Assembly (NCBI GenBank): GCA_040905865.1 | Contig: JBBDQU010000085.1 | Span: 48,295-112,294 of the forward strand | Source of the DNA: Alphaproteobacteria bacterium | GTDB taxonomy: Bacteria > Pseudomonadota > Alphaproteobacteria > UBA8366 > GCA-2717185 | DNA length: 64,000 nt | Reading direction: 5' to 3' | Shown here: in pieces, positions 1,234 to 19,541 of the stretch | Numbering within the stretch: the first letter of the stretch is position 1 | Layout: each line of letters opens with the position of its first letter | The notes under the pieces: generated by a model | Told to the model about the DNA's origin: nothing | Seen by the model: only the letters and a program-made list of their open reading frames with translations | The model's database searches: none | Position numbers and translations under genes: made by a program

Positions 1234-1397
1234 TCCGCCATATGAATAACAGATGCGGCAAAGATAACGGATTTTAAAGATTTATCGGTGAGGCTGGACC
1301 CGGTACGGGGTTAATATCGGACGGCGCAGGATTTCCATTGGACAGATAGGTTTATTTACCCCATTATTCGACTGCCATAAGAACTAATGCATTGATA

Positions 1398-2822: not shown

Positions 2823-2926
2823 CCTCGTTGCATTCCTTTCTGGCCGTCATCGACGCCGGCACTTATATGAAGGTTTCTGCTGACAGGTTATTGGTACTTT
2901 ACCAAAAAAGCGCCCCCGCCATACCG

Positions 2927-5530
2927 ATGAAAACCAGCTTCTCTTCAGAAAAGGTAACCGCGGTACAGCAGGCCTTTGCGGCCTGGACGCTGACCGTGGC
3001 GCGTCATGCCCGCAGCGTTATCGTCATTTGCGGGATTTTGACCGTCGCGGCGGCATGGTTTGCGGCCGGCAACCTCGCCATCGATACCAGTACGACGAAC
3101 ATGATTTCCGCGGAAACCCCGTTTCGGCAGAACGCCATCGCCTATGACCGGGCGTTCCCGCAGTTCAGCGACCTGATCGTCATTGTTGTCGATGCTCCCT
3201 CGTCTGATGCGGCAACCGCGATGGCAAAGGCATTGACCGGCGCGCTGCGCGGGAAAGGCGACCTGTTCAAGGGAATCGAATATCCGGAAGGCGATCCGTT
3301 TTTCAGGCGCGCGGGCCTGCTCTATCTGGACCTGGAATCGTTATCGGCGCTTGCCGACCGGCTGGCGGCAGCCGAACCGTTTCTGGCAACGCTCGCGCAT
3401 CAGCCAAACCTGAACGGGTTATTCGATTTTCTCGGACTCGCCCTGCGCAACGATGGCGCCGCCGGGGGAGCGGAACTGGCCGACCTGTTTCGCCGCGTTG
3501 ACGGCATCGTGGACGCGCATGTCGCGGACCGCCCGGCAATGCTGGCATGGCGCGACCTGATCGACGGCGAACGCAAGGACGGCGCGCGCCAGATCGTCCT
3601 GGCGCGGCCCAGGCTGGAGCATGGCGGGCTTTCCCCCGGTGCGGACGCACTTGCCGCAATCCGGCAAGCGGCCGCGGACCTCCGGGACGACGGGCTGCGG
3701 GACGTCACAGTCAGACTGACCGGATCTGTCGCGATTGCGGACGATGAACTGCGCAGCGTTGCGCTGGGCGGCGAGAAGGCGGGACTGCTGACGCTCGGCC
3801 TCGTGGTCCTGCTGGTGGTGATCGGCTTGCGGACCATCCGTTTGATCGTGCCCGCCATCGCGACCCTCGTTGTCGGGCTCATCTGGACAGCGGCCTTTGC
3901 CGCGCTGGCGGTCGGCCACCTGAACCTCATTTCAATTGCCTTCGCGGTCCTGTTTATCGGGCTCGGCGTCGATTTCAGCATCCATTACTGCCTGTACTAC
4001 CGCGAACGCGCCGCCCGCGACGCTACCGGCGCGCTGGTCGCCACGGGGTGCGGCGTCGGCGGATCGCTGGCGATCGGCGCGCTTTGCGCCGCGGCCGGGT
4101 TTCTGTCCTTCCTGCCGACGGACTACAAGGGCCTCGCCGAACTGGGCCTCATATCGGGGGGCGGCATGGCAATTGCGTTTTTTCTGAACATGACCCTGCT
4201 GCCGGCGATCCTGTCGCTGTTTCCCGGCAAACCGATTGAAACCGCAGCGCCCGGCGTCCCAACGGAACCGTTCACCGGGAAATATCACCGTCCGATACTG
4301 TGGATTGCGGCCGCCTGCGCGATACTGGCCGCCAGCGCCATGCCTTTCGCAAAATTCGACTTCAATCCTATGAACCTGAAGGACCCGACCAGCGAATCGG
4401 TATCCACCTTTCTGGATCTCGCGAATGATCCCCGAAACGGCGTGTACGCGATTGATGTCCTGGTTGCCGGCCTGGACCACGCGGCCCGGGAGGCGGAGCG
4501 GCTGAGCGCGTTGCCCGGCGTCGGGACCGCCGTGACCCTCAACAGCCTTGTTCCGGAGGATCAGGCGGAAAAACTGACCGTCATCGACGACATGGCTTAC
4601 TTTCTGGGTCCGGTGCTGACGGCGCCGGCCGCGGACCAGCCCGCCGCCGGTTCGTTTGCCGAATCCCTGGAAGATTTCAGGCGCACGGCCGCCACGTTCC
4701 TGGCCGGCGATCCCGGCGGGCCGCTTGCCGACGCCGTGGCGCAGCTCGACCGCGCCCTGTCGTCCGTCGACCCGGCCAACGCCGCGCGCCTCCAGGATCT
4801 CGACCGCAGGCTGACAGGATATCTTCCCGGGCTGCTGGACGACCTGCGTCTCGCGCTGGAAGCAGGCCCTGTCTCGGTGGATGACATTCCGCCGCACATC
4901 CGTCGGAACTGGCTCACCAATGACGGCGTTGCGCGGATACAGCTGCAACCCGCAAAGCCTGTTCGATCGAACGACGAATTGCGGCAATTCGCGGCGACCG
5001 TTCTGGCAGCGGCGCCGAATGCCGTTGGAACGCCGGTTACGATTTCCGAGGCGGGCGACGCCGTCGTATCCGCGTTCCGGGAGGCGTCGATTATCGCCTT
5101 TGTGCTGGTTTCCGCGATTCTGATCGTCCTGCTGCGCGGTATCGCACGGTCCTTTCTGGTTCTGCTGCCGCTCTCGCTCGCGGCCGTGCTGACCGGCGGC
5201 ACCTCCGTCGCGCTGAACCTGCCCTTCAATTTTGCCAATATTATCGTCCTGCCGCTGTTGTTCGGTCTTGGCGTCGCCAGCGGCGTTCACATGGTCATGC
5301 GGGAGCAGGCGGCGAACAGGGCAATCGACATCATGCAAACCAGCACGCCGCGTGCCGTGCTGTTCAGCGCATTGACGACAATCGCATCCTTCGGCAGCCT
5401 CGCGCTGTCGGGACATCTTGGCATGACCAGCATGGGCCAGCTCCTGACCATCGCCATCGGCTATACGCTGGTCTGCATGCTGCTCGTCCTGCCCGCCATG
5501 ATGGCCTGGCGCGACCGGCGCAGCCCATAA
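2927..5530 (+). CDS. hpnN: HpnN, hopanoid-associated RND-type transporter
   Basis: 867 aa with two 6-TM bundles separated by large soluble domains (MMPL/RND architecture), located next to hpnM. The ORF track begins at 2720. ATG 2927 (or 2867) removes the overlap with hpnM. Confidence 0.85.
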   Translation: MKTSFSSEKVTAVQQAFAAWTLTVARHARSVIVICGILTVAAAWFAAGNLAIDTSTTNMISAETPFRQNAIAYDRAFPQFSDLIVIVVDAPSSDAATAMAKALTGALRGKGDLFKGIEYPEGDPFFRRAGLLYLDLESLSALADRLAAAEPFLATLAHQPNLNGLFDFLGLALRNDGAAGGAELADLFRRVDGIVDAHVADRPAMLAWRDLIDGERKDGARQIVLARPRLEHGGLSPGADALAAIRQAAADLRDDGLRDVTVRLTGSVAIADDELRSVALGGEKAGLLTLGLVVLLVVIGLRTIRLIVPAIATLVVGLIWTAAFAALAVGHLNLISIAFAVLFIGLGVDFSIHYCLYYRERAARDATGALVATGCGVGGSLAIGALCAAAGFLSFLPTDYKGLAELGLISGGGMAIAFFLNMTLLPAILSLFPGKPIETAAPGVPTEPFTGKYHRPILWIAAACAILAASAMPFAKFDFNPMNLKDPTSESVSTFLDLANDPRNGVYAIDVLVAGLDHAAREAERLSALPGVGTAVTLNSLVPEDQAEKLTVIDDMAYFLGPVLTAPAADQPAAGSFAESLEDFRRTAATFLAGDPGGPLADAVAQLDRALSSVDPANAARLQDLDRRLTGYLPGLLDDLRLALEAGPVSVDDIPPHIRRNWLTNDGVARIQLQPAKPVRSNDELRQFAATVLAAAPNAVGTPVTISEAGDAVVSAFREASIIAFVLVSAILIVLLRGIARSFLVLLPLSLAAVLTGGTSVALNLPFNFANIIVLPLLFGLGVASGVHMVMREQAANRAIDIMQTSTPRAVLFSALTTIASFGSLALSGHLGMTSMGQLLTIAIGYTLVCMLLVLPAMMAWRDRRSP

Positions 5531-5663: not shown

Positions 5664-6407
5664 ATGAAAGCTGTCATGCTTGCCGCCGGAGTCGGCTCAC
5701 GGCTCGAAAAGGAAACCGGTTTTCCCCCGAAGACGCTGCTCCGCTTCGGCGGAAAGACCCTGCTGCAGCGTCACGCCGAAATCCTGAAATACCTGGGATT
5801 CGACGAACTGGTCATGGGCGTCGGCTATCAGGCCGAGCGTATCCGCGCGGAAATCGCGGCCATCGGCGCCGGCGATTTCGTGCGCACCGTGGATTGCCCG
5901 GATCACGCGAAGGGCGCACCGTATACCCTATGGGGTCTGCGGGCGGAATTCACCGGACCGACAGTCTTCATGGACGGCGATGTCCTGTACGACCACCGGC
6001 TGATGGCCAGGCTGGTGAATTCGCGCCATCAGACCTGTTTCGCCATGGACCGGAACGTCCGGCCGGGCGACGATCCTGTGAAGATATGCTTCAAGGACGG
6101 CCGGATAGTGGATTTTCACAAGATGCCGACCGCCCCTTTCGATACGTTTCACGAATGGATCGGCTTTCTGCGCCTGTCCGCGGATATCGCGCGCCGGGTC
6201 GAACCGGCCCTGCGCCCCTATATCGAAGCGGGGCGGACCGATTTCATTTACGAGCAAGCCTTCCGCGACATCCTGTACGCATCGCCCGACGGAACCTTTG
6301 CCACAGAAGACATTACCGGCCTTCCCTGGACTGAAATCGATTTCCCGCATGACCTGGTTTATGCCGAAAAGACCATTTTCCCCCGGCTGGAGCCGCTGCC
6401 CGCATGA
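5664..6407 (+). CDS. Nucleotidyltransferase (LicC/GlmU-N-like NTP-transferase fold)
   Basis: The N-terminal MKAVMLAAGVGSRL is a G-rich NTP-binding loop. The C-terminal ...GLPWTEIDFPHDL resembles LicC-type cytidylyltransferases. The start was chosen at ATG 5664 within ORF 5595. Confidence 0.75.
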   Translation: MKAVMLAAGVGSRLEKETGFPPKTLLRFGGKTLLQRHAEILKYLGFDELVMGVGYQAERIRAEIAAIGAGDFVRTVDCPDHAKGAPYTLWGLRAEFTGPTVFMDGDVLYDHRLMARLVNSRHQTCFAMDRNVRPGDDPVKICFKDGRIVDFHKMPTAPFDTFHEWIGFLRLSADIARRVEPALRPYIEAGRTDFIYEQAFRDILYASPDGTFATEDITGLPWTEIDFPHDLVYAEKTIFPRLEPLPA

Positions 6408-6519
6408 CGGTCCGGCGCAGGATATCGCCCCCGTGCGATCAGCGCCTTGCCCGCCCGGCAGCGGATTTATGGCGCAACGCCATTGGCTGGTTCACGGCGA
6501 ATGATTTTCCGGTGCGCCG

Positions 6520-7500
6520 ATGAAGTGGTCCATCCTCATCGGCCTGATCCTCGGCGGCGGGCTGTTTACCGCCTTGATCGCCTGGTATGGCGCGGCGGAT
6601 ATCCTGGCCGGCGCCATCGCCATCGGCTGGGGCATTCTGCTGGTTGTCCTGTTCCGCATCGCGTTGCTCGTCATCGACATGCTTTCCTGGCATGTCCTGA
6701 TTCCCCGGGAGAAGCGGATTTCCGTCGGCCGTCTTTTCTGGATCCGCTGGATTGCCGATTCCGTGAATACCCTGCTGCCTGTCGCGCGGATCGGGGGAGA
6801 ATTCCTGCGCGCGTTCCTGTTGCACCGCCGGGGCATCGAGGGGCCGATTGCCGGCGCAAGCGTCATGGTAGACCTTACCGCCGGAATTCTGGCCCAGTTC
6901 ATTTTCTCCGTTGTCGGCGTCATGGCCTTCGCGGCCATCGTCGGGGGCGGCCAGGACACGATTGTAAATCTTGCAATCGGACTCTCCCTGTTCGGCGCCG
7001 GGCTGGTCGGGTTTTACGTTGTGCAGCAAACCGGCCCGTTTTTGCGGCTCGCCAGGCTGATGGAACGTTTTGCCAGCGTTAATGCCTGGACATCGATCAC
7101 CGGCGGAGCCGCCGCACTGGATGCCGCGGTCATCGCGATGTACCGGCAGCGGCGCGCCACCACCCTGTGCTGCTTCTGGCGCATTATCGGCTGGGTCGCG
7201 GGAACCGGCGAGGTCTGGCTGATCCTGATGTTTCTGGGCCACCCGGTTACCCTGACGGAAGCCTTCGTGCTGGAAAGCCTCAGCCAGGCGGCCCGCAGCG
7301 CCGGGTTCATGATCCCCGGCGGCCTGGGGATTCAGGAAGGCGGACTTATCCTGATCGGAGGCTTCATTGGCCTGACGCCGGAACTGGCGCTCACGCTTTC
7401 ACTGATCAAGCGCGGGCGCGAATTGATTATCGGGATACCCGGCCTGGTCGCCTGGCAGATAGACGAGGGGCGCAACCTGTGGCGGCGACGGCATTCGTGA
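6520..7500 (+). CDS. hpnL: HpnL, UPF0104/LPG-synthase-TM (flippase-like) membrane protein
   Basis: Polytopic membrane protein with the ...NTLLPVARIGGEFLRAFLL... motif typical of UPF0104, in hopanoid cluster context. Confidence 0.75.
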   Translation: MKWSILIGLILGGGLFTALIAWYGAADILAGAIAIGWGILLVVLFRIALLVIDMLSWHVLIPREKRISVGRLFWIRWIADSVNTLLPVARIGGEFLRAFLLHRRGIEGPIAGASVMVDLTAGILAQFIFSVVGVMAFAAIVGGGQDTIVNLAIGLSLFGAGLVGFYVVQQTGPFLRLARLMERFASVNAWTSITGGAAALDAAVIAMYRQRRATTLCCFWRIIGWVAGTGEVWLILMFLGHPVTLTEAFVLESLSQAARSAGFMIPGGLGIQEGGLILIGGFIGLTPELALTLSLIKRGRELIIGIPGLVAWQIDEGRNLWRRRHS

Positions 7501-7693: not shown

Positions 7694-8638
7694 ATGAGTA
7701 AAAAGCCCTTAAAGGTCCTGCTGGCCCAGCCGAGGGGCTTTTGCGCCGGGGTCGTGCGCGCCGTCGATATTGTCGAGCGCGCGCTCGAAAAGTTCGGCAA
7801 GCCCGTCTATGTCCGGCATGAAATCGTTCACAACAAACATGTCGTCGAGACCCTGAAAAGCAAGGGCGCCATCTTCGTCGAGGAAGTCGACGAAATTCCG
7901 GAAGGCGCCGTCACGATCTTCAGCGCCCACGGCGTATCGCAGAAGGTCGAGGGCGACGCCGTCGGGCGGTTCCTGGAGGTCATCGACGCGACATGCCCCC
8001 TGGTCAGCAAGGTTCACAAGGAAGCCCAGCGTTATTCGCGCAGCGGATACGAAATCGTGCTTATCGGCCATCGCGGCCACCCCGAAGTCGAAGGCACGAT
8101 GGGCCAGGTACCGGGAACGGTGCATCTGGTCAGCCGGAAAGAGGATGTGGCGGGCCTCAAGACAACCGATTCGGGCAAACTCGCCTACGTCACCCAGACA
8201 ACGCTGAGCGTGGATGACACAAGGGATATCATCACCGCCCTGCGGACGCGCTTTCCGAAGATCGTCGGGCCGGATGTGAAGGATATCTGTTACGCGACGC
8301 AGAACCGCCAGAGCGTCGTCCGCGAAATGGTCCGGCACGCCGATGTCATCCTGGTCATCGGAGCGGATTACAGTTCAAATTCCAACCGGCTGCGCGAAAT
8401 CGGCCAGGAATCCGGCGTCCCGAGCTACCTGTTACCCGACGCATCGGCGCTCGACCCCGCTTGGCTCGAGAACGTCGGGACGGTCGGCATCACGGCCGGC
8501 GCATCGGCGCCCGAGGAACTGGTGCAGGGACTCATCCAGCGACTCGGCGACAGCTTCGAGGTCGATGTCCAGAACCTCGAAACCGTCAAGGAAAACATCC
8601 ACTTCAAATTGCCGCGCGAACTGATGGCAACCGCTTAA
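7694..8638 (+). CDS. ispH: 4-hydroxy-3-methylbut-2-enyl diphosphate reductase
   Basis: [15 protein letters not shown]..., HEIVHN, the conserved Cys trio context and full-length collinearity with IspH/LytB. Confidence 0.95.
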
Positions 8639-8667
8639 TCTCCGTACAAACCCCAACAGGAAAAACT

Positions 8668-9816
8668 GTGGCAGTACCTCTCATTCAGCAATTGCGCGTC
8701 GGCGCCTATGTTGTGAAACAGCGGATCAAGGGCGTCAAAAAATATCCACTGGTCCTGATGCTGGAGCCCCTGTTCCGATGCAATCTCGCCTGTCCCGGCT
8801 GTGGCAAGATCGACTATCCCGACGATATCCTGAACCGCCGGCTGAGCGTGGATGAATGTATAGAAGCCGTTGAGGAATGCGGCGCCCCGATCGTGTCGAT
8901 ACCCGGCGGCGAACCGCTGATCCACAAGGAAATCAAGGAAATCGTCGATGCGCTGATTGCGCGCAAGAAATTCATCTATCTGTGCACGAATGCGCTGCTG
9001 CTTGAAAAGAAGCTGCACCTCTTCAAGCCGAGCCCCTATCTGACGTTCTCCATCCATCTGGACGGGCTGGAAGCGGATCACGACCGGGCCGTCGACCGGA
9101 AGGGCGTCTTCCAGATCGCGACCCGGGCTATCGTAAAGGCGCGGGATGCCGGGTTCCGGGTCAATGTGAACTGCACCCTGTTCGACGGGGCCCAGGCGGA
9201 AGATGTCGCCGCCTTTTTCGACTACGGCATGTCGCTCGGCGTCGAGGGGATAACGGTTTCGCCGGGCTATGCCTATGAACGCGCGCCCGACCAGACGCAT
9301 TTCCTGTCGCGGCAGAAAACCAAACAGTTGTTCCGTAATGTGTTCAGGCTTGGGAAGGGACGGAACTGGCGTTTCAGCCAGTCGACCCTTTTCCTCGACT
9401 TTCTTGCCGGAAATCAGGAATACCAGTGCACCCCCTGGGGCAATCCGACCCGTAACGTCTTCGGGTGGCAACGCCCGTGTTATCTGTTGGGCGAGGGATA
9501 CGCCCCCAGCTACAAGGCCCTGATGGCGGAAACCGACTGGGAGTCCTACGGGACCGGCAAATACGAAAAATGCGCCGAGTGCATGGTGCATTGCGGATAT
9601 GAAGCCACGGCCGTGATGGACACGATTGCCCACCCGATGAAAGCGCTGAAAACATTCATAAAGGGCCCGGAACTGGACGGCCCGATGGCGCCGGAAATCT
9701 CGCTCGAAAACCAGCGGCCGGCCGAATATATCTTCGAATCGAATGTGCAGAAGACGCTGACCCAGTTGCACGCTGAAGCGGAAGAACGGGCGCGGGGGCG
9801 CAGCGACGCGGCCTGA
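8668..9816 (+). CDS. hpnH: Adenosylhopane synthase HpnH (radical SAM)
   Basis: Radical-SAM CNLACPGC motif after the conserved N-terminus VAVPLIQQLRVGAYVVKQ. GTG start at 8668, in frame within ORF 8461. 382 aa. Confidence 0.9.
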   Translation: MAVPLIQQLRVGAYVVKQRIKGVKKYPLVLMLEPLFRCNLACPGCGKIDYPDDILNRRLSVDECIEAVEECGAPIVSIPGGEPLIHKEIKEIVDALIARKKFIYLCTNALLLEKKLHLFKPSPYLTFSIHLDGLEADHDRAVDRKGVFQIATRAIVKARDAGFRVNVNCTLFDGAQAEDVAAFFDYGMSLGVEGITVSPGYAYERAPDQTHFLSRQKTKQLFRNVFRLGKGRNWRFSQSTLFLDFLAGNQEYQCTPWGNPTRNVFGWQRPCYLLGEGYAPSYKALMAETDWESYGTGKYEKCAECMVHCGYEATAVMDTIAHPMKALKTFIKGPELDGPMAPEISLENQRPAEYIFESNVQKTLTQLHAEAEERARGRSDAA

Positions 9817-9826
9817 CCGGATCTGG

Positions 9827-10525
9827 TCAGTCGCTGCCTGTCTCTCTGAACAGGACGCGCGCCGCAACGGCAAGGCTGCGCATTGCCGCCGCACTGTCGC
9901 CCGCCAGCCGGATGAGCCCCGGAAGGTCACTTGGGCGAAACAGCAGGCGCCCCAATACGGCAAACGGACGGCGGCGCCCGTCGGATCCCATGCCCGCCAG
10001 AGCGGCGGCAGGGACGGCCCGCATCGACGGATCGGCGACCGCGCGGATTACCAGTATCGGAATACCCAGTTCGGCCGCCGCCGAAGCCGTACCGTGGCTT
10101 TCCATATCGACGGCGAGAGCGCCGGACCGTAATCTAAGCGCCGCCTTCGCCGCGACCGAAACAGCAGGCGCATCGACGCCCGCGACGCCGCCGATCCGGA
10201 CGCGGCATTCCCGCTGCAGCCCGGCCGCGATGGATTGCGCCCAGGGCCCCGTCATGTCCAATGGCGGTCCTGAATTGCGCCAGACCGTCGCGCCGATCAC
10301 GATATCGCCCGGCAGCAGCGACGGATCGAGACCGCCCGCAAGCCCGAAACTGACCAGCGCTCTTGCGCCCGCCGCCACCTGTTGCCGCGCGAGACCGGCC
10401 GCGCGTTCGGCGCTGCCGCCGGCCACGCCGATAATCGGCATGTCGGCATCCTGCAAGCCGCGACTGGCGGTCCTGATGCGGGCAGCCTCCATCGACAGCC
10501 CCGTCACGATCCCGAGGCGGCTCAC
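9827..10525 (-). CDS. hpnG: HpnG, hopanoid-associated nucleosidase/phosphorylase (PNP/UDP family)
   Basis: PNP_UDP-like sequence (GIVTGL..EA.., SFGLAGGLDP, AVDMES) lies directly after shc with a GTGA start/stop overlap at 10522-10525. Confidence 0.85.
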   Translation of the reverse strand: MSRLGIVTGLSMEAARIRTASRGLQDADMPIIGVAGGSAERAAGLARQQVAAGARALVSFGLAGGLDPSLLPGDIVIGATVWRNSGPPLDMTGPWAQSIAAGLQRECRVRIGGVAGVDAPAVSVAAKAALRLRSGALAVDMESHGTASAAAELGIPILVIRAVADPSMRAVPAAALAGMGSDGRRRPFAVLGRLLFRPSDLPGLIRLAGDSAAAMRSLAVAARVLFRETGSD

Positions 10526-12501
10526 ATTCCGTATGGCGCCGACTTGGCGTTACCGGCTTTCAGGTTGCGGTAACGGGCCAGCGCCCAAAGCGGGAAATAG
10601 GCGCTGTAGCCGTGGTAGCGCAGATAAAAGACCCGCGGGAAGCCGACCGCCGTGTACCAGGGCTCCACCCAGCGGACCCCGTCGCGTTCCGCCGACAGGA
10701 GATATTCGATACCGCGCCGCACGGCGTCCGAGTCGATTTCCCCCGCGGCCATCAGCGCCAGCAGGGCCCAGGCCGTTTGCGACGGTGTGCTCGCCTTCAC
10801 CTTCGTCCGTGTCTCGGCCCAGTATGTCGCGCCATCCTCACCCCAGCCGCCATCGTCCCGCTGGCGGCTTTCAAGCCACGCCACCGCCTTTCGGATATGA
10901 GGCGCCGACATGTCTTCATTCGCCGCATTGAAGGCGCCGAGAACCGACCAGGTGCCGTAGATATAATTCGTGCCCCAGCGTCCGAACCACGAACCGTCCG
11001 GCTGCTGCATATCCCGCAGATAGGCGAGCCCCCGTGCCACAGACGCCTTGCCGGATTCACGCCCCATCTGCGCCAGCATGCTGACGCACCGTGCGGTTAC
11101 ATCCTCGGTCGGCGGGTCGAGCAGCGCGCCATGGTCGGCAAAGGGGATATAATTGAGATAGGTATAGGTGTTTTCCGCATCGAACGACCCCCAGCCGCCG
11201 TTCCTGCACTGCATGCCGACAATCCATTCTTCGGCGCGGTCCAGCGTCGACTCGAATGCCGGGTCGTCCATCCGGTCCAGCGCCATGGCCACCACGGCGG
11301 AATCGTCCACATCCGGATAGTAGTCGTTGTTATACTGGAAGGACCAGCCACCCGGCCGGACGCCCGGACGCCCGTCCGCCCAGTCGCCCCTGACGTCCAG
11401 CACCTGGCGATCCGCCAGCCAGTGCGCCGCCTTTTGCAGCGCATCGCTATCCCGCGATACGCCCGCTTCCATCATCGCCAGCGAGGCGAGGCCGGTATCC
11501 CAGACCGGCGACATGCAGGGCTGGCAATACCCCCGGTCTTCCTCCAGGACGAGCAACCGCCGGATAGCGGTTTTCGCCAGAACGACATCCGGATGATCCT
11601 TGGGAAACCCCAGCCGGTCGAACGCCATGACCGTATTGGCCATCGCAGGAAAAATGCCGCCCAAACCGTCTTCCCCGTTCAGGCGTTCGCGAACGAATGC
11701 CTCCGCCTTTCGGAAGGCGCGTTGCCGCCGGTTCTTCGGATATTGCCGTTCGATAATCCGCAGCACCTTGTCCAGGCCGATCATGATAGCACCCCAGGGG
11801 GACCCGGTCGCATTGCGCATGTAATGCTTGACGTCGTCGGACGGGGTGACGAACAGCTCCTCGATATGCACGCCGCGCGGATTGCGGGCGCGCGGCTTCA
11901 GCGCCATCAGGATCAGCAACGGCACCAGCACCGTGCGCGACCAGTACGATATCTTGGAGATATGGAAGGGAAACCAGCGCGGCAGCAACATGATTTCAAT
12001 CGGCATGACCGGAACCGCCCGCCAGGGAAGCTGATCGAAAAGCGCCAGCGCTATGCGCGTAAACACATTACAGGTTTCGGCCCCGCCATGGGCGAGAATT
12101 GCGTCGCGCGCGCGCGTCATATGCGGTTCTTCGGGACGGTCGCCAAACAGCTTCAGCGCGTAATAGGCCTTTACGCTGGCGCTGATATCGAAATCGCCCT
12201 GGTAAAACAGCGACCAGCCGCCATGCAATTCCTGCTTGTCCCGCAGATAGACCGCGAGCTTGTTCTCTATTTCCGGGTCGATTTCGTCGAGAAAATGCTC
12301 CAGCAGAATATACTCGGCCGGGATCGTCACATCGGCTTCGAGTTCGAACACCCAGTGGCCATCGCCGTTCTGGAGCGCGGCCAGAGCGTTGCCGGCATCT
12401 TCGACGGTCGCATCTACTTTATTCAGAAGTCCATCGTCATGCTGCTGTGGAACGCCGCCGACATATGCGTCGGCCCCTCCAACTTCCCTGGCTGCATTCA
12501 T
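10522..12501 (-). CDS. shc: Squalene-hopene cyclase
   Basis: Repeated QW motifs (..Q..DGGWG..) are present, together with the DVDDSAV (DxDD-type) catalytic motif, read on the minus strand around nt 11.3 kb. 659 aa from ATG 12501. The longer ORF running to 12876 would overlap hpnE. Confidence 0.95.
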   Translation of the reverse strand: MNAAREVGGADAYVGGVPQQHDDGLLNKVDATVEDAGNALAALQNGDGHWVFELEADVTIPAEYILLEHFLDEIDPEIENKLAVYLRDKQELHGGWSLFYQGDFDISASVKAYYALKLFGDRPEEPHMTRARDAILAHGGAETCNVFTRIALALFDQLPWRAVPVMPIEIMLLPRWFPFHISKISYWSRTVLVPLLILMALKPRARNPRGVHIEELFVTPSDDVKHYMRNATGSPWGAIMIGLDKVLRIIERQYPKNRRQRAFRKAEAFVRERLNGEDGLGGIFPAMANTVMAFDRLGFPKDHPDVVLAKTAIRRLLVLEEDRGYCQPCMSPVWDTGLASLAMMEAGVSRDSDALQKAAHWLADRQVLDVRGDWADGRPGVRPGGWSFQYNNDYYPDVDDSAVVAMALDRMDDPAFESTLDRAEEWIVGMQCRNGGWGSFDAENTYTYLNYIPFADHGALLDPPTEDVTARCVSMLAQMGRESGKASVARGLAYLRDMQQPDGSWFGRWGTNYIYGTWSVLGAFNAANEDMSAPHIRKAVAWLESRQRDDGGWGEDGATYWAETRTKVKASTPSQTAWALLALMAAGEIDSDAVRRGIEYLLSAERDGVRWVEPWYTAVGFPRVFYLRYHGYSAYFPLWALARYRNLKAGNAKSAPYGM

Positions 12502-12623
12502 GATGATTACGCTAATCTTCCCATCAACCGAACAAATATACCGATTCGGTGCTTCATGCTTCAATAATCCGAATGTTGTCAATACCGGCGGCCGGTTCGC
12601 GCAGGAATACTTTCTGATCGGTA

Positions 12624-13877
12624 TCAGCCCCCTAATACGGCCTGCGCCGCGGCGTGACCGGAGCGGATGGCGCTTTCGATGGTCGCGGGCAGCCCGGTAT
12701 CGGTCCAGTCGCCGGCAAGGTAAAGATTGGCGGTCGCCGTCCGCGTTTTCGCCCGCAGCCGCATTGCGGCGGGCGTTTGCGAGAAAGTTGCGCGCCGTTC
12801 CTTCACGATTCGGTACGGCGGGATCGCGGCGCCGCGCCAGTCCAGCGCGTGGCAGACGTCCCGCCATAACCGGCACGCGATTGAATCGGCCGGTTCAAGC
12901 GCCAGTTCATCGGCGGCGCTGACGGTGACGGAAACAATATCACCGCGGATGAACAGCCAGTGCGCCAGGCCGCCGACCAGTCCGAGCATGGAAACGTCGT
13001 CACCGGCGGACAGCGGCGCCGCGAGCCGGAAATGCGCGTTCACGATGGCATGACTGCCGTCCGGCAGCGCCATGTCCGGAAAAACCGCCTTCAATCCGGC
13101 AGGAGGCAGCGCCAGGATGACGGAATCGGCAGACTGCACCACGACACCGGTATCCGAAAAATCGAGGTAGCTAATCGCGCCGTTACGCCGTTCCACGCCC
13201 TTCAGGCGATGCGCATACCGGATATCCGCCCCCGCGGCCGCCAGCGTCGACAGAGCCGGCGTCACAAAGCTGTCCGACAGGCTGGTCCGGGCGGCCAGCG
13301 GCCGGCAAAGCGCCGCGCCGCCGGCAAAGGTCTCCGTCAGGACCTGCCACAGTGGCGCGGCCGCCGCACGATCCGCCGGCGTGTTGAGCGCGGCCACGGC
13401 CAACGGTTCCCAGAAACGTGCATACAATGCCCCTGTGTCCCCCAGCACCTCTTCGACAGTTGCGGCCGGGCCCGCCTGGCGAAGGCGCAGGGCGGCAAGA
13501 AAATCGACAGGGCGGGTTCCGGGCGGGCGTCTGCCGGGACACAGGATCCACCACGGAACCGGACCGGCGTTCGGCCGGACCGTCCAGCGCGCGCCGCTCG
13601 CCAGGTCAACGAAGGGAAAGGCGGCGTCCCCCGGTCCGGACAGCGGGTCAGCGGCGCCGGTTTCGTCCAGATAGGCCATGACGGAACGATTGCCGCTCAA
13701 CAGCATGTGGTTGCCATTGTCGATCACGGCGCCCAGGACGCTGTCATGAAATGAACGGCAGCGGCCGCCGGCGTGACCGCTGGATTCGTAGACCGTGACG
13801 AGACGGCCCGCCGCCGCGAGCCGGACGGCCGCAGCCAGCCCCGCCAGTCCCGCACCCACAACATGAACCCGTGTCAT
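12624..13877 (-). CDS. hpnE: Hydroxysqualene dehydroxylase HpnE (FAD-dependent desaturase)
   Basis: N-terminal FAD fold VHVVGAGLAGLAAAVRL..G..V.V.E, amine-oxidase-like body, and position between hpnD and shc. Start at ATG 13877. Confidence 0.88.
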   Translation of the reverse strand: MTRVHVVGAGLAGLAAAVRLAAAGRLVTVYESSGHAGGRCRSFHDSVLGAVIDNGNHMLLSGNRSVMAYLDETGAADPLSGPGDAAFPFVDLASGARWTVRPNAGPVPWWILCPGRRPPGTRPVDFLAALRLRQAGPAATVEEVLGDTGALYARFWEPLAVAALNTPADRAAAAPLWQVLTETFAGGAALCRPLAARTSLSDSFVTPALSTLAAAGADIRYAHRLKGVERRNGAISYLDFSDTGVVVQSADSVILALPPAGLKAVFPDMALPDGSHAIVNAHFRLAAPLSAGDDVSMLGLVGGLAHWLFIRGDIVSVTVSAADELALEPADSIACRLWRDVCHALDWRGAAIPPYRIVKERRATFSQTPAAMRLRAKTRTATANLYLAGDWTDTGLPATIESAIRSGHAAAQAVLGG

Positions 13878-13884
13878 CCCCGCC

Positions 13885-14790
13885 CTAGAAGAAACTGTGC
13901 CGCAGCACGAGGCGGATTTTCGCCCATCGCGACAGGCCAACCGGTTCGTCGAGCCGGTTCCATCCGCGCCGACGGAGCATCTCGAGCGTCTGCCGATAAA
14001 CCGCCATCATCAGAATGGCCGGCCGAATCCTGCGCCGGTCGAGACGCTGCATCAGGTACGCGCTGACGGTGAAAGCTTCCCGGGCCACTTCAGCGAGGTC
14101 CGCGCAGACGCGCGCCACCGCCGGGTCCGCCAATAATTCGGAAGCGGTCGTCGCCGTCACGCCATGTTTGTCCAGCAGTTCCCGCGGCAGGTAAAGCCGC
14201 CCTGCAAGGGCATCTTCATGAACGTCGCGGAGGATATTGGTCAACTGCAGGGCATTGCCCAGGCTGACCGCCAGGTCCGGCGCCGGCGGACGGGTTTCGC
14301 CAAAGGCGTGAATCGACAGCATGCCGACCGCACCGGCGACGCGCCGGCAATACAGAAACAGATCGGCGTAGCTGGGCCCCCAGATTGCTTCGCGCGCATC
14401 CATTTCCATACCGTCGATTACGGCAAGGAACTCCGCCCTGGGCAGTCCGAATGCCTGAACCGGATCAAGCAGCGCCTGCGCGGTGGGGAAATGGGGCCGG
14501 CCGTCATACAGGCTTTCGACTTCGTCACGCCATGCCGCCAGACGCGCCAGCTTGCCGGCGGCGTCTCCGGGCCCGTCGGCAATGTCGTCCACCTCCCGGC
14601 AAAAGGCGTAGATCGCATACATCGCCGCCCGCCGGTCCGACGGCAGCACACGCATGCCAAGGCGGAAAGACGAGCCGGAACGTTCCACGATCCGGCGCGC
14701 ATGCTCCCGCGCCGCCGCCGCATCGAACACGATCGGCGCATCGTCGCTGCGTGTCAGGTCGTCTGAAGCGGAAGACTGCAAGTTCGCCAT
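13885..14790 (-). CDS. hpnD: Presqualene diphosphate synthase HpnD
   Basis: Squalene/phytoene synthase family: SSF..GMRVLP..RRAAMYAIYAFCREVDDIADG and a second Asp-rich region. Canonical hpnC-hpnD-hpnE order. Confidence 0.88.
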   Translation of the reverse strand: MANLQSSASDDLTRSDDAPIVFDAAAAREHARRIVERSGSSFRLGMRVLPSDRRAAMYAIYAFCREVDDIADGPGDAAGKLARLAAWRDEVESLYDGRPHFPTAQALLDPVQAFGLPRAEFLAVIDGMEMDAREAIWGPSYADLFLYCRRVAGAVGMLSIHAFGETRPPAPDLAVSLGNALQLTNILRDVHEDALAGRLYLPRELLDKHGVTATTASELLADPAVARVCADLAEVAREAFTVSAYLMQRLDRRRIRPAILMMAVYRQTLEMLRRRGWNRLDEPVGLSRWAKIRLVLRHSFF

Positions 14791-14856: not shown

Positions 14857-15705
14857 TCAGCCGGAGCGGCGAACCACATCCCAAAGCCCGCCCATACCGC
14901 ACAGGATATATTGCGGCCGGCGCAGGACGACCCGTTCCGCCAGGGGGTCCCGGCGTCGTAACGCCTGCGTCAGACGGTTGGCGATCCGCACGATCACCGC
15001 CGCTTCCAGCGCAAATCGGGTATTGCGCAACCGGCCGATCAGCGACTCCGCGACGGCCATAAGGGTTTCTGTCGAATCGAGGCTTTGATCGATCACCCTG
15101 CGCAGGCCCGCGCTGGCGGCAGCACCGTCCAGCGACGCCACGGTAATGCCCGCTTCGGACATCCAGTCGCCGGGCAGGTAGACCCGGTCCAGCGCCCGAT
15201 AGTCATCCTGGCAGTCCTGCAGGTGATTGATCACCTGCAGGGCGCAACACAGCGCGTCGGATGCGGCATAGGCGTCCTTCGTTTCGCCATGCAGGTCGAT
15301 CAGGTACCGGCCGACGGGGGCGGCGGACAGCATGCAATACGCCATCAGGTCGTCCCAGTCGGCGTAGCGCGATTTCACCGCATCCTGTTTGAACGCGGCG
15401 ATGAGGTCGAGGCAATGCTGCGGATCCACATGAGTCGCGGCCATGCTGTCGCGAATGGCGTTCGCCCTGGCGAAGGCGGGATTGGCGCCGCCGGGGTCGC
15501 GCAATGCATCCGCAAACCCGTCCAGCCGGGATATCTTCTCTGCCGGCGCGAGGTCGGGGTCATCGGCGATATCGTCGATAGCCCGGGCGTAGGCGTAGAA
15601 GATGGCGACATGCGGCCGCAGGGAAGCCGGCAGCAGCCACGATCCAACCGGGAAGTTTTCATCCCTGGCTTGTTTTCCGGAAGGCGTTTCAACGGTATCG
15701 GACAA
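14857..15705 (-). CDS. hpnC: Hydroxysqualene synthase HpnC
   Basis: Squalene/phytoene synthase family: ENFPVGSWLLP...YAYARAIDDIADD. Located upstream of hpnD. Confidence 0.88.
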   Translation of the reverse strand: MSDTVETPSGKQARDENFPVGSWLLPASLRPHVAIFYAYARAIDDIADDPDLAPAEKISRLDGFADALRDPGGANPAFARANAIRDSMAATHVDPQHCLDLIAAFKQDAVKSRYADWDDLMAYCMLSAAPVGRYLIDLHGETKDAYAASDALCCALQVINHLQDCQDDYRALDRVYLPGDWMSEAGITVASLDGAAASAGLRRVIDQSLDSTETLMAVAESLIGRLRNTRFALEAAVIVRIANRLTQALRRRDPLAERVVLRRPQYILCGMGGLWDVVRRSG

Positions 15706-15729: not shown

Positions 15730-16908
15730 TCAGTGCGGATAGACGCGGCCTTTCCAGCCGCCGCCCTTGCCTTCCCAATGCCGGATGGCGGATGCGATCG
15801 TCATTGCGGTGTAAAGCATGGCGGCCACCGGCAGCAACACCGCAGCGACACCAGGACGGCGATAGAATTTTAACGTGGGGAGATAGGCTACGCACATCAG
15901 ACCGTAAGCCGCCAGGCCCGGAACCGCGGCGGCGGGCCCGAGCCATGGCGAGACGAACACGGCCGCGGGCGGCGCCGCAAAGACCAGCAGCATGGCCAGG
16001 ACGCATCCGGCAAGCAGCCATGGCGAATAACCCAGCTGCGTATAGGCGCTGCGCGCGACCATGCGCCAGACGCCGCGGAGCCCGCCATAGGGCCGGACGG
16101 AACGAGTTTCGGCGCTCAGCCCGAGCCAGAGGCGACCGCCGGTATCCGCGATAAGGCGCGCCAGCCGGCAATCGTCGATCAGCGCGTCACGCATGGCGGA
16201 CATGCCGCCGGCGCGCTCCAGCGCGGACCGGCGCACCAGCATGCAGCCGCCAGCCGCAGCGGCGGTTGATTTACGCGCATCGTCGTTCACCCAGGCGAAG
16301 GGATAGAGCATCTGGAAAAAGAAGACGAAAGGCGGAACCAGCAGACGTTCCCAAACATCCGCCACCGCCAGCGTTACCATGATGGAAACGAGATCCTTTT
16401 GCCCTGACTCCGCCCTGGCGACCAGGCGGCGCAGGTTGGACCGCTCATGCGCGATATCGGCGTCGCTGAACAGGATGTAGCGCGCGTCGGGAAAATGGTC
16501 CCGTGCATGCGATACACCCTGGTCCATCGCCCAGACCTTGCCGGCCCAGCCGGGCGCCAGCGGCGCGCCATCGACGACGCGGAGCCGCGCCTGCTCGCGA
16601 ATGCCTTCGGCGGCGGCGCGTGCGGCCGCGACGGTGCCGTCTTCGCTGTTGTCGTTTACAAGGATCACGGAAACGGGGCGCGGATAATCCTGCGTCAGCA
16701 GCGATTCAACCGTTTGTCCGATGACATCGGCTTCGTTCCGGGCCGGGATCACCACGACAACCGCCGGCCACTCGTCCCGGCCGTCAAAGGTCTCGATAGG
16801 TTCCGATCCGACCCGGCATTCGCCGCGCCAGAACCCGCCGCGGAAAAGCACCAGATACAGCCAGACAATGCATGACAGGACGGCCAGACTGACGACGGTT
16901 TGCCCCAC
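15730..16908 (-). CDS. hpnB: HpnB, hopene-associated family-2 glycosyltransferase
   Basis: GT2 core VVVIPARNEADVIGQTVESLLTQDYP...ILVNDNSEDGT with DAD and C-terminal TM helices. GTG start at 16908. Located upstream of hpnC. Confidence 0.8.
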   Translation of the reverse strand: MGQTVVSLAVLSCIVWLYLVLFRGGFWRGECRVGSEPIETFDGRDEWPAVVVVIPARNEADVIGQTVESLLTQDYPRPVSVILVNDNSEDGTVAAARAAAEGIREQARLRVVDGAPLAPGWAGKVWAMDQGVSHARDHFPDARYILFSDADIAHERSNLRRLVARAESGQKDLVSIMVTLAVADVWERLLVPPFVFFFQMLYPFAWVNDDARKSTAAAAGGCMLVRRSALERAGGMSAMRDALIDDCRLARLIADTGGRLWLGLSAETRSVRPYGGLRGVWRMVARSAYTQLGYSPWLLAGCVLAMLLVFAAPPAAVFVSPWLGPAAAVPGLAAYGLMCVAYLPTLKFYRRPGVAAVLLPVAAMLYTAMTIASAIRHWEGKGGGWKGRVYPH

Positions 16909-16911
16909 CGG

Positions 16912-17664
16912 TTACACGCGAAACACATACTCTTTGCCGGCATCGCGTTCTATGTCGGGCGGATAGCTGTTGCGTTTGTCGGCATAATACTGCGCGCGAT
17001 GGTCGCCGTCGGAAAGACGGTTATAGGTAATATAAAGGACGCGCCGCGGCGATTCGGTCAGGTTCGGCGCGGATCGATGCGGCGCATATGAATCGAAGAA
17101 AACGACATCGCCGGGCCGGGTCGGGCACGACCGGTAGACCACTTCGCTGTCGGCCCCATCGTCCAGGGGACGCCATTCATCGCCGATCAGCCCCCTGTTA
17201 TGCCAACCGGCGGCCATTTCCAGGCAACCGTTTTCCGGTGTCGCGGCGTCGATGCTGACCAGGGCGGTCACATGGAAGTCCGCATACACGTTCCAGCCGG
17301 CCTGCGCATCCTGATGCGCCCTGAAACCATCGCCGCCGGGCATCTTCATGTTGATCTTTTCCTTGAACAGGACGGCGGGCTCGCCCAGCAATTGCGACAT
17401 GGCGTCAACCAGTGGCCCCTGTCGCATCAACGCATCGAATCCGGCGTGATACGGGCAGAAATTCTCGATCCGGGAAACAACGCGGGCCGCAGGGTCGATC
17501 AGGCTGGTTTCATAGTAGATCATGTGTTGGCCGGGGGATTCGGGCCAGCGCAGCACCTCCTCCGTCCATGCCGTTATATCGCGGATGACGGCCGCATCGC
17601 ACATACCCGGCACGACGACAAACCCGTCCCGCCGAAACGCCTGTACGTCTTCATGTGACAGCAT
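16912..17664 (-). CDS. PhyH-family Fe(II)/2-oxoglutarate dioxygenase
   Basis: Phytanoyl-CoA dioxygenase-like: HQD (HxD) in ..FRAHQDAQ.., a distal His in ..YAPHRSAPN.. and an Arg in ..PRRVLYITY. The TAA stop lies 3 nt before the hpnB GTG. Confidence 0.8.
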   Translation of the reverse strand: MLSHEDVQAFRRDGFVVVPGMCDAAVIRDITAWTEEVLRWPESPGQHMIYYETSLIDPAARVVSRIENFCPYHAGFDALMRQGPLVDAMSQLLGEPAVLFKEKINMKMPGGDGFRAHQDAQAGWNVYADFHVTALVSIDAATPENGCLEMAAGWHNRGLIGDEWRPLDDGADSEVVYRSCPTRPGDVVFFDSYAPHRSAPNLTESPRRVLYITYNRLSDGDHRAQYYADKRNSYPPDIERDAGKEYVFRV

Positions 17665-17855
17665 TACCAATAGATCTCTTCAAACTGTTTCCAACCGGGA
17701 ACCGGGCCGGAGCATGCCGTATATTTCGCATGCGACGGTACCGGCATCAATACATGCGATCCGCAAACCCATTCGTTAACCATGCTGCTTCAGGATCTGT
17801 TAACGCGCGTGAACGATACTGCAAAAATCCATCTGAATTCATCAGGAACCCGATC

Positions 17856-19541
17856 ATGAGGGCCATCGACTTGCTGGCAGAAAGCTTCCCGCAGCACGAG
17901 CCCGATGCCGACCATGAACGCATTGTCGCCGCCTTCGACAAATTGCGGGTCGCAATTGCCATTTTCGATGACCATGATCGCCTGACATACTGTAACACGC
18001 ATTTCCGGTATATCTTTCAGTCGTTCAAGACACTGGGCCGGATCGTTGGCATGACGTATGCCGATCTGCTTCGGCGCAAGATCGACAATAACGAAATCGC
18101 CGGTACCGATATTGTTGACGATCCCGAAGGCTGGATCGCCAGGCGGCTGATTCTCAGGCGGCGCGCGATGGCTGAGCCCTACGACGAACGCCTGACCGAC
18201 GGTCGCTGGATACGCATCAGCGAACGCATGCTCGAAAGCGGCGGCACGATCCGGATGTATACGGATATTACCGCGTCAAAGGTCGGCGAATACCGATTCC
18301 TGAGCGCTGTCGAGGACAGCCAGGACGCCCTTGCCTTCTGGGACCAGCGCGACAAACTCATCATGCGCAACGACGCGTTCGAAACGCTGTTCGTCACGCC
18401 GGGCGGGAATCTGCTGCCGGGCGTCTCCTTCACCGCAGTCCTGCGTATCGCGGCGGACTATCATTTTCAAATCGATACCGGAGCGGAAGACTGGGTTCGG
18501 GAAAGGCTGCGTCAACACCTGCTTCCCGATCACCGGGAAATCTGGCGGCATCGGGACGGCAGATGGTTTCTGGTCAACGAACACAGGTCGCGCGATGGCG
18601 GGATCGTGACGCGCCTGTCCGACGTCACAGAAGTAAAGGAAAACGAGCTAGCGATGATCGAGCGGGGCACCACGCTGTCCGGCACGGTGCATCAACTCGA
18701 AATGTCGAAGTACATGTTTGAAAAGCAGAGCATGGAACATGTCCATGCGCTGGAGAAACTGGCGAGCGCAAAGGCGGAGCTTGAAGCCGCCAATGCCAGC
18801 CGTTCCCGCTTCCTCAGCATTATCAGCCATGAATTGCGTACGCCAATGAACGCCATCATCGGCTTTTCAGAAATCCTGAAAAATGAGATGCTGGGCCCGA
18901 TCGGCCCGAAAAAATATGTCGAATACGCTGGCGACATATGCGCCAGTGGGCAGCATCTTCTATCGCTTATTAACGATCTCCTCGACATGTCGAAAGTCGA
19001 AGCCGGCAAATGGCGGCTCAATCGCAGCGAAGTGTATGTGGAGGCGCTGGTGCGTTCCTGTGCCAGGCTCATGTCCGAACAGGCTGCCAGTGGCAACGTC
19101 ACGATAGATCTGAGTTTTTCGAACACGCAGAATCCCGTGTACATCGACGAACGGGCGATACGGCAAGTGCTTCTGAACCTGCTGTCCAATGCGCTGAAAT
19201 TCACGGGGAAGGCCGGAAGCATCCGTATCGATACCGCCGTCGAAGGCACGCTTTTGACTGTTGCCGTCATCGACAACGGCGTCGGGATTCAAGAGTGCGA
19301 TCTGTCGCGGGTGTTCAAACCGTTCGAACAGGGGGAAAATAACCTGAACCGTACCCATGAAGGCACCGGCCTTGGACTGTCGCTTTGCAAGTCGCTGGTT
19401 GAACTGCATGGCGGCACGATCCACATCGACAGCCACGAAGGCGAAGGCACGACGGTCGCGTTCAGCCTGCCGCTGGAATACGCCCCGCCGTCAACAAACG
19501 GATCAACCGGTTCAACGGATTCCGAAACAGACTCGGCGTGA
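17856..19541 (+). CDS. Soluble PAS-domain sensor histidine kinase
   Basis: PAS-like repeats, H-box SIISHELRTPMNAI, N box LLNLLSNALKFT, G1 DNGVGI and G2 GTGLGLSL. AGGA lies 9 nt upstream of ATG 17856. No TM segment was seen. Confidence 0.88.
   Translation: MRAIDLLAESFPQHEPDADHERIVAAFDKLRVAIAIFDDHDRLTYCNTHFRYIFQSFKTLGRIVGMTYADLLRRKIDNNEIAGTDIVDDPEGWIARRLILRRRAMAEPYDERLTDGRWIRISERMLESGGTIRMYTDITASKVGEYRFLSAVEDSQDALAFWDQRDKLIMRNDAFETLFVTPGGNLLPGVSFTAVLRIAADYHFQIDTGAEDWVRERLRQHLLPDHREIWRHRDGRWFLVNEHRSRDGGIVTRLSDVTEVKENELAMIERGTTLSGTVHQLEMSKYMFEKQSMEHVHALEKLASAKAELEAANASRSRFLSIISHELRTPMNAIIGFSEILKNEMLGPIGPKKYVEYAGDICASGQHLLSLINDLLDMSKVEAGKWRLNRSEVYVEALVRSCARLMSEQAASGNVTIDLSFSNTQNPVYIDERAIRQVLLNLLSNALKFTGKAGSIRIDTAVEGTLLTVAVIDNGVGIQECDLSRVFKPFEQGENNLNRTHEGTGLGLSLCKSLVELHGGTIHIDSHEGEGTTVAFSLPLEYAPPSTNGSTGSTDSETDSA

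Follow-up and report, generated by a model that had tools for sequence, protein, structure and literature searches.

The 64-kb stretch of DNA analysed here (the window; part of contig JBBDQU010000085.1 of an alphaproteobacterium) contains a complete hopanoid supercluster, and the minus-strand arm of this supercluster, PhyH-hpnB-hpnC-hpnD-hpnE-shc-hpnG, begins with a gene for an Fe(II)/2-oxoglutarate (2OG) dioxygenase of the PhyH fold. The gene is conserved in hpn neighbourhoods of many bacteria, and its product is probably hopanoid-associated. We put at roughly 55% the probability that the enzyme is a PhnY*-type hydroxylase with a biosynthetic role, supplying the 1-hydroxy-2-aminoethylphosphonate head group of a hopanoid-associated lipid. 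The original prediction was that of a hopanoid tailoring oxygenase. Its association with hopanoid genes was borne out, but the side chain or rings as substrate were not: the match of the enzyme to PhnY* and the genes for 2-aminoethylphosphonate (AEP) metabolism that neighbour its orthologues make a phosphonate head group a likelier substrate than C-30, C-31 or the rings. The gene is located as follows.

16912..17664, minus strand: PhnY*-like Fe(II)/2OG dioxygenase (PhyH fold), 250 amino acids; Pfam, NCBIfam and AlphaFold2 model; triad H117/D119/H196, 2OG-binding R207.

The open reading frame (ORF) is real and encodes an Fe(II)/2OG protein of the PhyH family fold with intact catalytic residues. 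It extends on the minus strand from an ATG at 17664 to a TAA at 16914-16912; an in-frame TTG at 17670 is an upstream alternative but probably not the start, since the closest homologues are also 250 amino acids long. Residues 10-209 align with the whole of the Pfam domain PhyH (PF05721, profile positions 1-213 of 213), with a score of 83.8 bits for a cut-off of 22 and an E-value of 2.7e-23. The motifs HQD (residues 117-119), YAPHRS (193-198, including the distal His196) and RR (207-208) are present and do not vary in the 63 orthologues, and the facial triad and 2OG-binding arginine read from the sequence at the outset are indeed intact, H117, D119, H196 and R207 being invariant across 63 orthologues and 17 outgroup sequences. 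The AlphaFold2 model, for which 52 homologues were aligned, has a mean predicted local distance difference test (pLDDT) value of 94.5, and Foldseek matches it to PhyH-type double-stranded beta-helix hydroxylases with a probability of 1.0 and template modelling (TM) scores of 0.7-0.76. The stop codon is separated by only 3 nt (ccg) from the GTG start of hpnB, as had been described. The limits first given for the gene were 16908-17664, of which the upper one is right; position 16908 already belongs to hpnB, as the first base of its GTG, and the dioxygenase gene, with its stop, ends at 16912.

The sole strong match of the dioxygenase to a curated family is to the methylphosphonate hydroxylase PhnY* (NCBIfam NF052437), which aligns over the full length with 207.9 bits and an E-value of 1.8e-61; the runner-up, ectoine hydroxylase, scores 38.8 bits. 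NF052437 is likewise the first-ranked family for all 52 of the 52 aligned relatives. The closest solved structures (18-25% identity) are hydroxylases of small polar molecules, i.e., free proline, leucine and ectoine hydroxylases, PHYHD1, SnoN, EvdO2 and MysH. Human phytanoyl-CoA hydroxylase (PHYH, PDB 2a1x), after which the Pfam family is named, appears at rank 49 among the solved structures, with 17% identity. It shares with the window dioxygenase the double-stranded beta-helix fold and the HxD...H...R cofactor site, and beyond these nothing ties the window enzyme to an isoprenoid substrate. As the nearest structures are those of small-molecule hydroxylases and PHYH comes 49th, the PhyH family name says nothing about an isoprenoid substrate, and the argument that PhyH proteins act on isoprenoid-derived lipids has to be given up.

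With the enzymes known as PhnY* (the 2-aminoethylphosphonate dioxygenase of the marine PhnY*/PhnZ pair and the methylphosphonate hydroxylase of Gimesia maris) the window dioxygenase has fold and triad in common, and its predicted chemistry is alike, namely hydroxylation at the carbon alpha to phosphorus. The setting is different. PhnY* is a catabolic enzyme of phosphorus-scavenging operons and pairs with a PhnZ-type HD-domain oxygenase, whereas the window gene lies in a lipid biosynthesis cluster, is flanked instead by hpnB and a histidine kinase gene, and is proposed to have a biosynthetic role.

A scan of species-representative genomes with the dioxygenase yielded 80 loci (designated by L numbers), 63 of them with at least 51% identity (orthologues) and 17 more distant (38-47%). 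Neighbouring genes were located by tblastn, with the verified proteins of the window and Pfam-checked representatives as queries, and by local hidden Markov models (HMMs); the counts refer to genes within 10 kb of the dioxygenase homologue, and two loci (L003 and L064) were reassigned by hand. A lack of linkage to hpn genes in related genomes had been named at the outset as a ground for abandoning the hopanoid assignment. Linkage was found: core hpn genes are present in 36/63 orthologue loci and in 0/17 distant ones (Fisher p ~1e-5), and shc in 24/63. The linked orthologues belong to Alpha- and Gammaproteobacteria and are arranged in at least four gene orders, these being PhyH-hpnB-C-D-E-shc-hpnG in marine and other Alphaproteobacteria (L001-L009, L011), hpnC-hpnB-PhyH-hpnD (L010), hpnC-PhyH-dxs-hpnD-E-shc-hpnG (L012, L018, L022, L025, L027, L037) and, in Gammaproteobacteria, shc-hpnG-PhyH-hpnN (L019, L031, L034, L045, L047-L051). 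The immediate downstream neighbour of the dioxygenase gene is hpnB in 13 orthologue loci.

Genes for AEP-phosphonate synthesis and activation co-occur with the orthologous group as consistently as hpn genes do, which argues against the hopanoid skeleton as substrate. The recurrent neighbours, verified with Pfam, include phosphoenolpyruvate (PEP) mutase (Ppm), often fused to a PF12804 nucleotidyltransferase (NT), phosphonopyruvate decarboxylase (Ppd) and a class-V AEP-type aminotransferase (AEPT), together with a separate PF12804 NT, a CDP-alcohol phosphatidyltransferase of ~200 amino acids (CDP-OH-PT), hpnL and an hpnA-like epimerase. Ppm, Ppd or AEPT is found at 13/63 orthologue loci, a PF12804 NT at 19/63 and a CDP-OH_P_transf gene at 20/63; seven of the 63 combine core hpn genes with Ppm, Ppd or AEPT. 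Only four orthologue loci lack all hpn, phosphonate and head-group partners, and phosphonate-module genes are absent from the vicinity of the 17 distant homologues (Fisher p ~4e-6 versus orthologues).

Several loci illustrate how these genes are arranged. L049-L051 carry shc-hpnG-PhyH-hpnN-CDP-OH-PT-hpnA, hpnL and CDP-OH-PT-NT-Ppm. L052 contains CDP-OH-PT, AEPT, Ppd, Ppm, NT, PhyH, hpnL, MlaA, hpnA, hpnB and hpnC, with a fragment of hpnD at the end of the locus, and the isolate Pelomicrobium sp. G1 (L015) has CDP-OH-PT, PhyH, NT, Ppm, Ppd, AEPT, hpnL and hpnN. Precomputed Pfam annotation of three close relatives reveals the remaining genes of the module. In L082, whose PhyH protein is 82% identical to the window dioxygenase, CDP-OH-PT adjoins hpnL; the order is hpnN-NT-CDP-OH-PT-hpnA-hpnL-ispH-hpnH in L084 and NT-CDP-OH-PT-hpnA-CDP-OH-PT-ispH in L085, a locus of the chromosome that also carries L027. 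A neighbour-joining tree nests the clade of the window among clades linked to Ppm, NT and CDP-OH-PT; identity across Ppm-adjacent and Ppm-less members is 51-85%, and 53 positions are near-invariant in the dioxygenase homologues whatever their gene context.

Phosphonate or head-group genes are also met where no hpn gene is near, namely on two plasmids. In Azospirillum thermophilum plasmid NZ_CP029358.1 (L086, 5585-10719), PEP mutase (which is not in the PLSDB gene table), aepY (Ppd) and an aminotransferase are followed by a single 579-amino-acid protein that joins an N-terminal PhyH domain, a distant homologue of the window dioxygenase, to a class-V aminotransferase domain. A fusion of this kind connects AEP metabolism with the dioxygenase family. 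Plasmid pC5.7d of Rhizobium rhizogenes (L087, 6148-8409) carries a PF12804 NT, a PhyH protein 46% identical to that of the window and a LicD-family phosphotransferase; Ppm, Ppd and AEPT are absent within 7 kb of this set.

Orthologues with no hpn gene nearby are found in Methylomirabilota as well. In Methylomirabilota/Rokubacteria and co-binned metagenome-assembled genomes (L013, L014, L020, L026, L028, L029, L041, L064 and others), orthologues 60-65% identical to the window enzyme adjoin a gene of the TagF-like CDP-glycerol glycerophosphotransferase family and a DUF3413/sulfatase-type membrane transferase, sometimes also an NT. These contexts suggest that the same head group is put on a different acceptor. 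A further context is that of homologue P0114 (62% identity; L081, on a 6.04-Mb contig), which has neither hpn nor ppm genes within 10 kb. Its neighbours code for an FMO-like monooxygenase, a TerC-family protein, an Aminotran_3 protein and a glycerophosphodiester phosphodiesterase, and the region is of surface-polysaccharide type, with rhamnose-type sugar genes, an O-antigen-type ABC exporter and a sulfotransferase. The association of the dioxygenase with hpn or ppm genes is therefore not universal.

The window itself contains an NT gene (5664-6407), located between hpnN and hpnL of the same hpn supercluster and 10.5 kb from the dioxygenase, and this would be its second gene of the putative head-group module. 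Its product belongs to a group of homologues of 247 amino acids and is 43% identical to the NT adjoining Ppm in L033 and 85% identical to the NT of L084. The best PDB match, over the full length and with an E-value of 1.4e-9, is 6pd1 (Tde1415 PntC-AEPT of Treponema denticola, an AEP-specific PntC); the alignment with the phosphocholine enzyme LicC covers the N-terminal 60 amino acids only. By this comparison the window NT is nearer to the AEP-specific PntC structure than to LicC; the determinants published for PntC versus LicC specificity are steric, and the sequence does not reveal them. After 113 bp (6407-6520), hpnL comes directly behind the NT gene. Relatives carry CDP-OH-PT, and L084 also hpnA, between NT and hpnL or ispH (L084, 10741-12359; L082, 20065-20667), and in the window organism the module may be reduced or not functional.

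A phosphonate substrate is preferred here over a hopanoid because of the PhnY* match, the small polar substrates of the structural neighbours and the recurrent phosphonate genes. In the route that we propose, a soluble hydroxylase of the PhnY* lineage would convert AEP, either free, CMP-activated or already lipid-bound, to 1-hydroxy-AEP. The PntC-like cytidylyltransferase would activate the phosphonate, and a CDP-alcohol-type phosphotransferase, the gene for which is found in close relatives and not in the window, would move the head group to an alcohol acceptor. HpnL, HpnA, HpnB and HpnN might then modify, flip or export the product. Taking into account that the dioxygenase and its module are embedded among shc, hpnG, hpnH, hpnN, hpnL, hpnA and hpnB, the acceptor may be a hopanoid polyol or a hopanoid glycoside. 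Going one step further, and only tentatively, NT, CDP-OH-PT, HpnL, HpnA, HpnB and the dioxygenase might together build undescribed lipids in which bacteriohopanepolyols or their glycosides are esterified with AEP or 1-hydroxy-AEP.

A predicted counterpart of such a route exists in the literature. The commonest ppm neighbourhood family, 'Burkholderiales_CDP-OH', is assigned to Group-1 phosphonolipids (Li and Horsman, 2022, PMC8942020). Its seven-gene core comprises Ppm, Ppd, AEPT, an alpha-ketoglutarate/Fe oxygenase, two PntC and two lipid genes; 1-hydroxy-AEP lipids are the predicted products, none of which has yet been isolated (PMC8942020, with Yu et al., 2013, cited therein). This core, with a Ppm-PntC fusion, a second PntC, Ppd, AEPT, CDP-OH-PT and the oxygenase, harbours orthologues of the window gene, for example in L033, L015, L052 and L061, and the product predicted for both oxygenases is alike, a 1-hydroxy-AEP lipid. 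In contrast to Burkholderiales_CDP-OH, the window has neither the three AEP-synthesis genes nor the CDP-alcohol transferase, and its oxygenase is joined to the hpnB-G operon. The window dioxygenase is best seen as a hopanoid-cluster-embedded variant of this predicted phosphonolipid-cluster oxygenase; Burkholderiales_CDP-OH has no characterised product or enzyme, so that the comparison is one with a prediction.

A connection between hopanoid and phosphonate genes has been touched upon before. Nitrosococcus clusters with squalene synthase and cyclase were said, in a passing remark, to hint at a 'phosphonoterpene' (PMC8942020), and a genome-mining paper on Acetobacteraceae links shc to PEP mutase in Roseomonas (PMC8776678). 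Our full-text searches for a hopanoid-linked dioxygenase, cytidylyltransferase or phosphonate returned passing remarks only, and none assigned a dioxygenase to an hpn cluster. Microsynteny around shc is the subject of a 2025 preprint (PMC12324291), which puts forward hpnL, hpnM, hpnS and hpnT; its main text contains none of the words dioxygenase, phytanoyl, phosphonate or nucleotidyl.

Six observations weigh against a phosphonate head group. First, the 207.9 bits obtained with NF052437 fall short of the equivalog cut-off of that family, 500 bits, so that by the NCBI criterion the dioxygenase is a homologue of the Gimesia methylphosphonate enzyme and not isofunctional with it. Second, searches of the PDB found no PhnY* structure with which the substrate-binding residues could be compared. 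Third, the K-x-N-x-K motif, conserved here, is common to a proline hydroxylase and gives no substrate information; abundant invariant Lys and Arg residues, considered as a sign of an anionic substrate, were dropped as an argument, since the motif occurs both in that hydroxylase and in all outgroup sequences. Fourth, tblastn and local HMMs detected no Ppm, Ppd, AEPT or CDP-alcohol phosphotransferase in the 64-kb window. Fifth, no Ppm lies within 10 kb of PhyH or NT in the alphaproteobacterial loci with the gene order of the window or with the hpnC-PhyH-dxs order; in these Alphaproteobacteria, genes for AEP synthesis may lie elsewhere in the genome, AEP may be imported, or it may be lacking. Sixth, we found no report of a phosphonate- or phosphate-bearing hopanoid, including in a 2025 high-resolution mass spectrometry survey of 52 Alphaproteobacteria (PMC12583986).

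Several of these points would fit a dioxygenase that belongs to a head-group module and acts, in genomes without Ppm, on another nucleotide-activated precursor, such as an amino alcohol, a sugar or a related compound. We consider this improbable, and keep it as a sizeable rival because no Ppm lies near the alphaproteobacterial loci. Ppm, Ppd and AEPT are missing from the window and from the 10 kb around the gene in its alphaproteobacterial relatives, the R. rhizogenes NT-PhyH-LicD set is likewise without a nearby Ppm, the score of the dioxygenase lies under the PhnY* cut-off, and source annotations name the NT family phosphocholine cytidylyltransferase or choline kinase. The near-invariant positions and the level of identity shared by Ppm-adjacent and Ppm-less members argue, however, for a single substrate, and the characterised members of the lineage all act at the carbon alpha to phosphorus (PMC8942020). 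On chemical grounds, moreover, C1 hydroxylation of a phosphate ester would be expected to yield an unstable hemiacetal.

Direct oxidation of the hopanoid, either by hydroxylation of the side chain at C-31/C-30 to give pentol and hexol or by desaturation of a ring, appears still less probable to us. Such a role would account for the tight and conserved linkage to shc, hpnG, hpnB and hpnC in several arrangements, and Fe/2OG enzymes are able to hydroxylate unactivated CH2 groups. Homologues of the dioxygenase also occur in Methylomirabilota, which are presumably producers of hexol-type hopanoids. There is, too, a vacancy to be filled: that no enzyme had been assigned to these reactions, as the original prediction stated, agrees with the November 2025 survey, which lists as unknown both the genes that form bacteriohopanepentol/hexol and those that desaturate hopanoids (PMC12583986). 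The same survey, however, inspected the surroundings of the hpn clusters of pentol/hexol producers and saw no candidate gene there. The family context speaks against a hopanoid substrate as well: a phosphonate hydroxylase gives the family its strongest match, small polar substrates are bound in all of the closest solved structures, and orthologues adjoin Ppm/Ppd/AEPT and PntC. The Methylomirabilota copies accompany a TagF-like phosphotransferase and a sulfatase-type transferase rather than hpn genes, and elsewhere the PhyH protein stands between NT and LicD (the Rhizobium plasmid) or is fused to an AEP-type transaminase.

That the gene encodes a catabolic PhnY*, oxidising environmental AEP for phosphorus scavenging and placed beside the hopanoid operon by chance, is very improbable: PhnY* homology, the label '2-aminoethylphosphonate dioxygenase' given by JGI to some homologues and the origin of several relatives from marine metagenome-assembled genomes would agree with it, but the gene is flanked by hpnB and by the gene for a histidine kinase instead of a PhnZ-type partner, no HD-domain gene was seen among the called genes of L081-L085 or the recurrent neighbour families identified (HD domains were not searched for explicitly), and the 3-nt coupling to hpnB together with hpn linkage in 36/63 loci and in varied orders is incompatible with chance.

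Hopanoids rank among the major lipids of bacterial membranes and serve as key biomarkers in geology; of the organic phosphorus of the sea, a large share is phosphonate. The conserved physical link between both pathways, with the dioxygenase at the junction, leads to a hypothesis that is open to mass spectrometry, namely that some hopanoids bear a (hydroxy)aminoethylphosphonate head group; with this link, the dioxygenase is no longer an easy candidate for the pentol/hexol or desaturation chemistry. If a phosphonate head group is indeed made, the widespread 'Group-1 phosphonolipid' clusters, whose products were never found, may produce lipids built on hopanoids. A function would thereby be found for HpnL, and perhaps for HpnA and HpnB, which have lacked one for more than two decades; hpnA, hpnB and hpnL are without established function at present (PMC12583986).

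The supercluster consists of plus-strand genes, including hpnN to hpnH, followed by the minus-strand arm from hpnG to PhyH, in which the genes are co-directional, with gaps of at most 66 nt or overlaps. NCBIfam identifies the genes downstream of the dioxygenase, hpnG marginally under its cut-off, and this bears out the position first given to the dioxygenase at the head of the arm. The genes of the minus-strand arm are these.

15730..16908, minus strand: hpnB, hopene-associated family-2 glycosyltransferase; TIGR03469, 534 bits (cut-off 379).
14857..15705, minus strand: hpnC, squalene synthase; TIGR03464, 281 bits (cut-off 250).
13885..14790, minus strand: hpnD, presqualene diphosphate synthase; TIGR03465, 318 bits (cut-off 279).
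12624..13940 (longest ORF), minus strand: hpnE, hydroxysqualene dehydroxylase; TIGR03467, 371 bits (cut-off 283).
10522..12876 (longest ORF), minus strand: shc, squalene-hopene cyclase; TIGR01507, 804 bits (cut-off 431).
9827..10525, minus strand: hpnG, hopanoid-associated phosphorylase; TIGR03468, 182.4 bits, just under the cut-off of 187.1; overlaps the shc stop by 4 nt.

The start of hpnE is probably slightly downstream of that of its longest ORF. The longest ORF of shc has ~150 extra N-terminal residues that overlap hpnE, and its true start is probably near 12420, since the family alignment begins at residue 153. The remaining genes of the supercluster and its immediate surroundings are as follows.

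8461..9816 (longest ORF; alignment from residue 71), plus strand: hpnH, adenosylhopane synthase; TIGR03470, 550 bits.
7694..8638, plus strand: ispH; NF002188, 478 bits.
6520..7500, plus strand: hpnL, lysyl-phosphatidylglycerol-synthase-like/flippase-like membrane protein of unknown function; TIGR03476, 319 bits; PF03706.
5664..6407, plus strand: PntC/LicC-like cytidylyltransferase (NT); PF12804.
2720..5530, plus strand: hpnN, RND hopanoid transporter; TIGR03480, 911 bits.
2226..2822, minus strand: MlaC-like protein (HpnM); PF05494, E-value 9e-35.
1392..2195, plus strand: MlaA-like lipoprotein (HpnS in the 2025 preprint, PMC12324291); NF011672, 140 bits.
17655..19541 (start uncertain), plus strand: PAS-PAS-HisKA-HATPase sensor histidine kinase, divergent from the dioxygenase; Pfam.

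The window shares the order hpnB-C-D-E-shc and the operon structure with canonical hpn clusters, which have the order hpnA-hpnB-hpnC-hpnD-hpnE-shc in Zymomonas; in the window, the dioxygenase takes the place of hpnA upstream of hpnB. The absence of hpnA at this position, noticed at the outset, extends to the whole window, as a local HMM found no homologue in the 64 kb at E-values up to 10. In the close relative L084, in contrast, hpnA lies in an NT-CDP-OH-PT-hpnA-hpnL operon. The MlaA-like and MlaC-like genes on the 5' side of hpnN fit the HpnS/HpnM hopanoid-trafficking pair proposed in PMC12324291.

A scan of the window for promoters and terminators performed no better than with shuffled sequence. 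The divergent position of the histidine kinase gene is kept in L001-L009, L082 and L083, and the kinase may serve specifically to regulate the hpn arm. Beyond it, on the minus strand (20572-23238), lies a gene for an ABC exporter of 888 amino acids, the ATPase domain of which is matched in two stretches (~residues 374-463 and 717-887); this split implies an insertion of ~250 amino acids in the nucleotide-binding domain. The exporter is kept at the same place in relatives, with 885-889 amino acids in L001, L002, L004 and L082.

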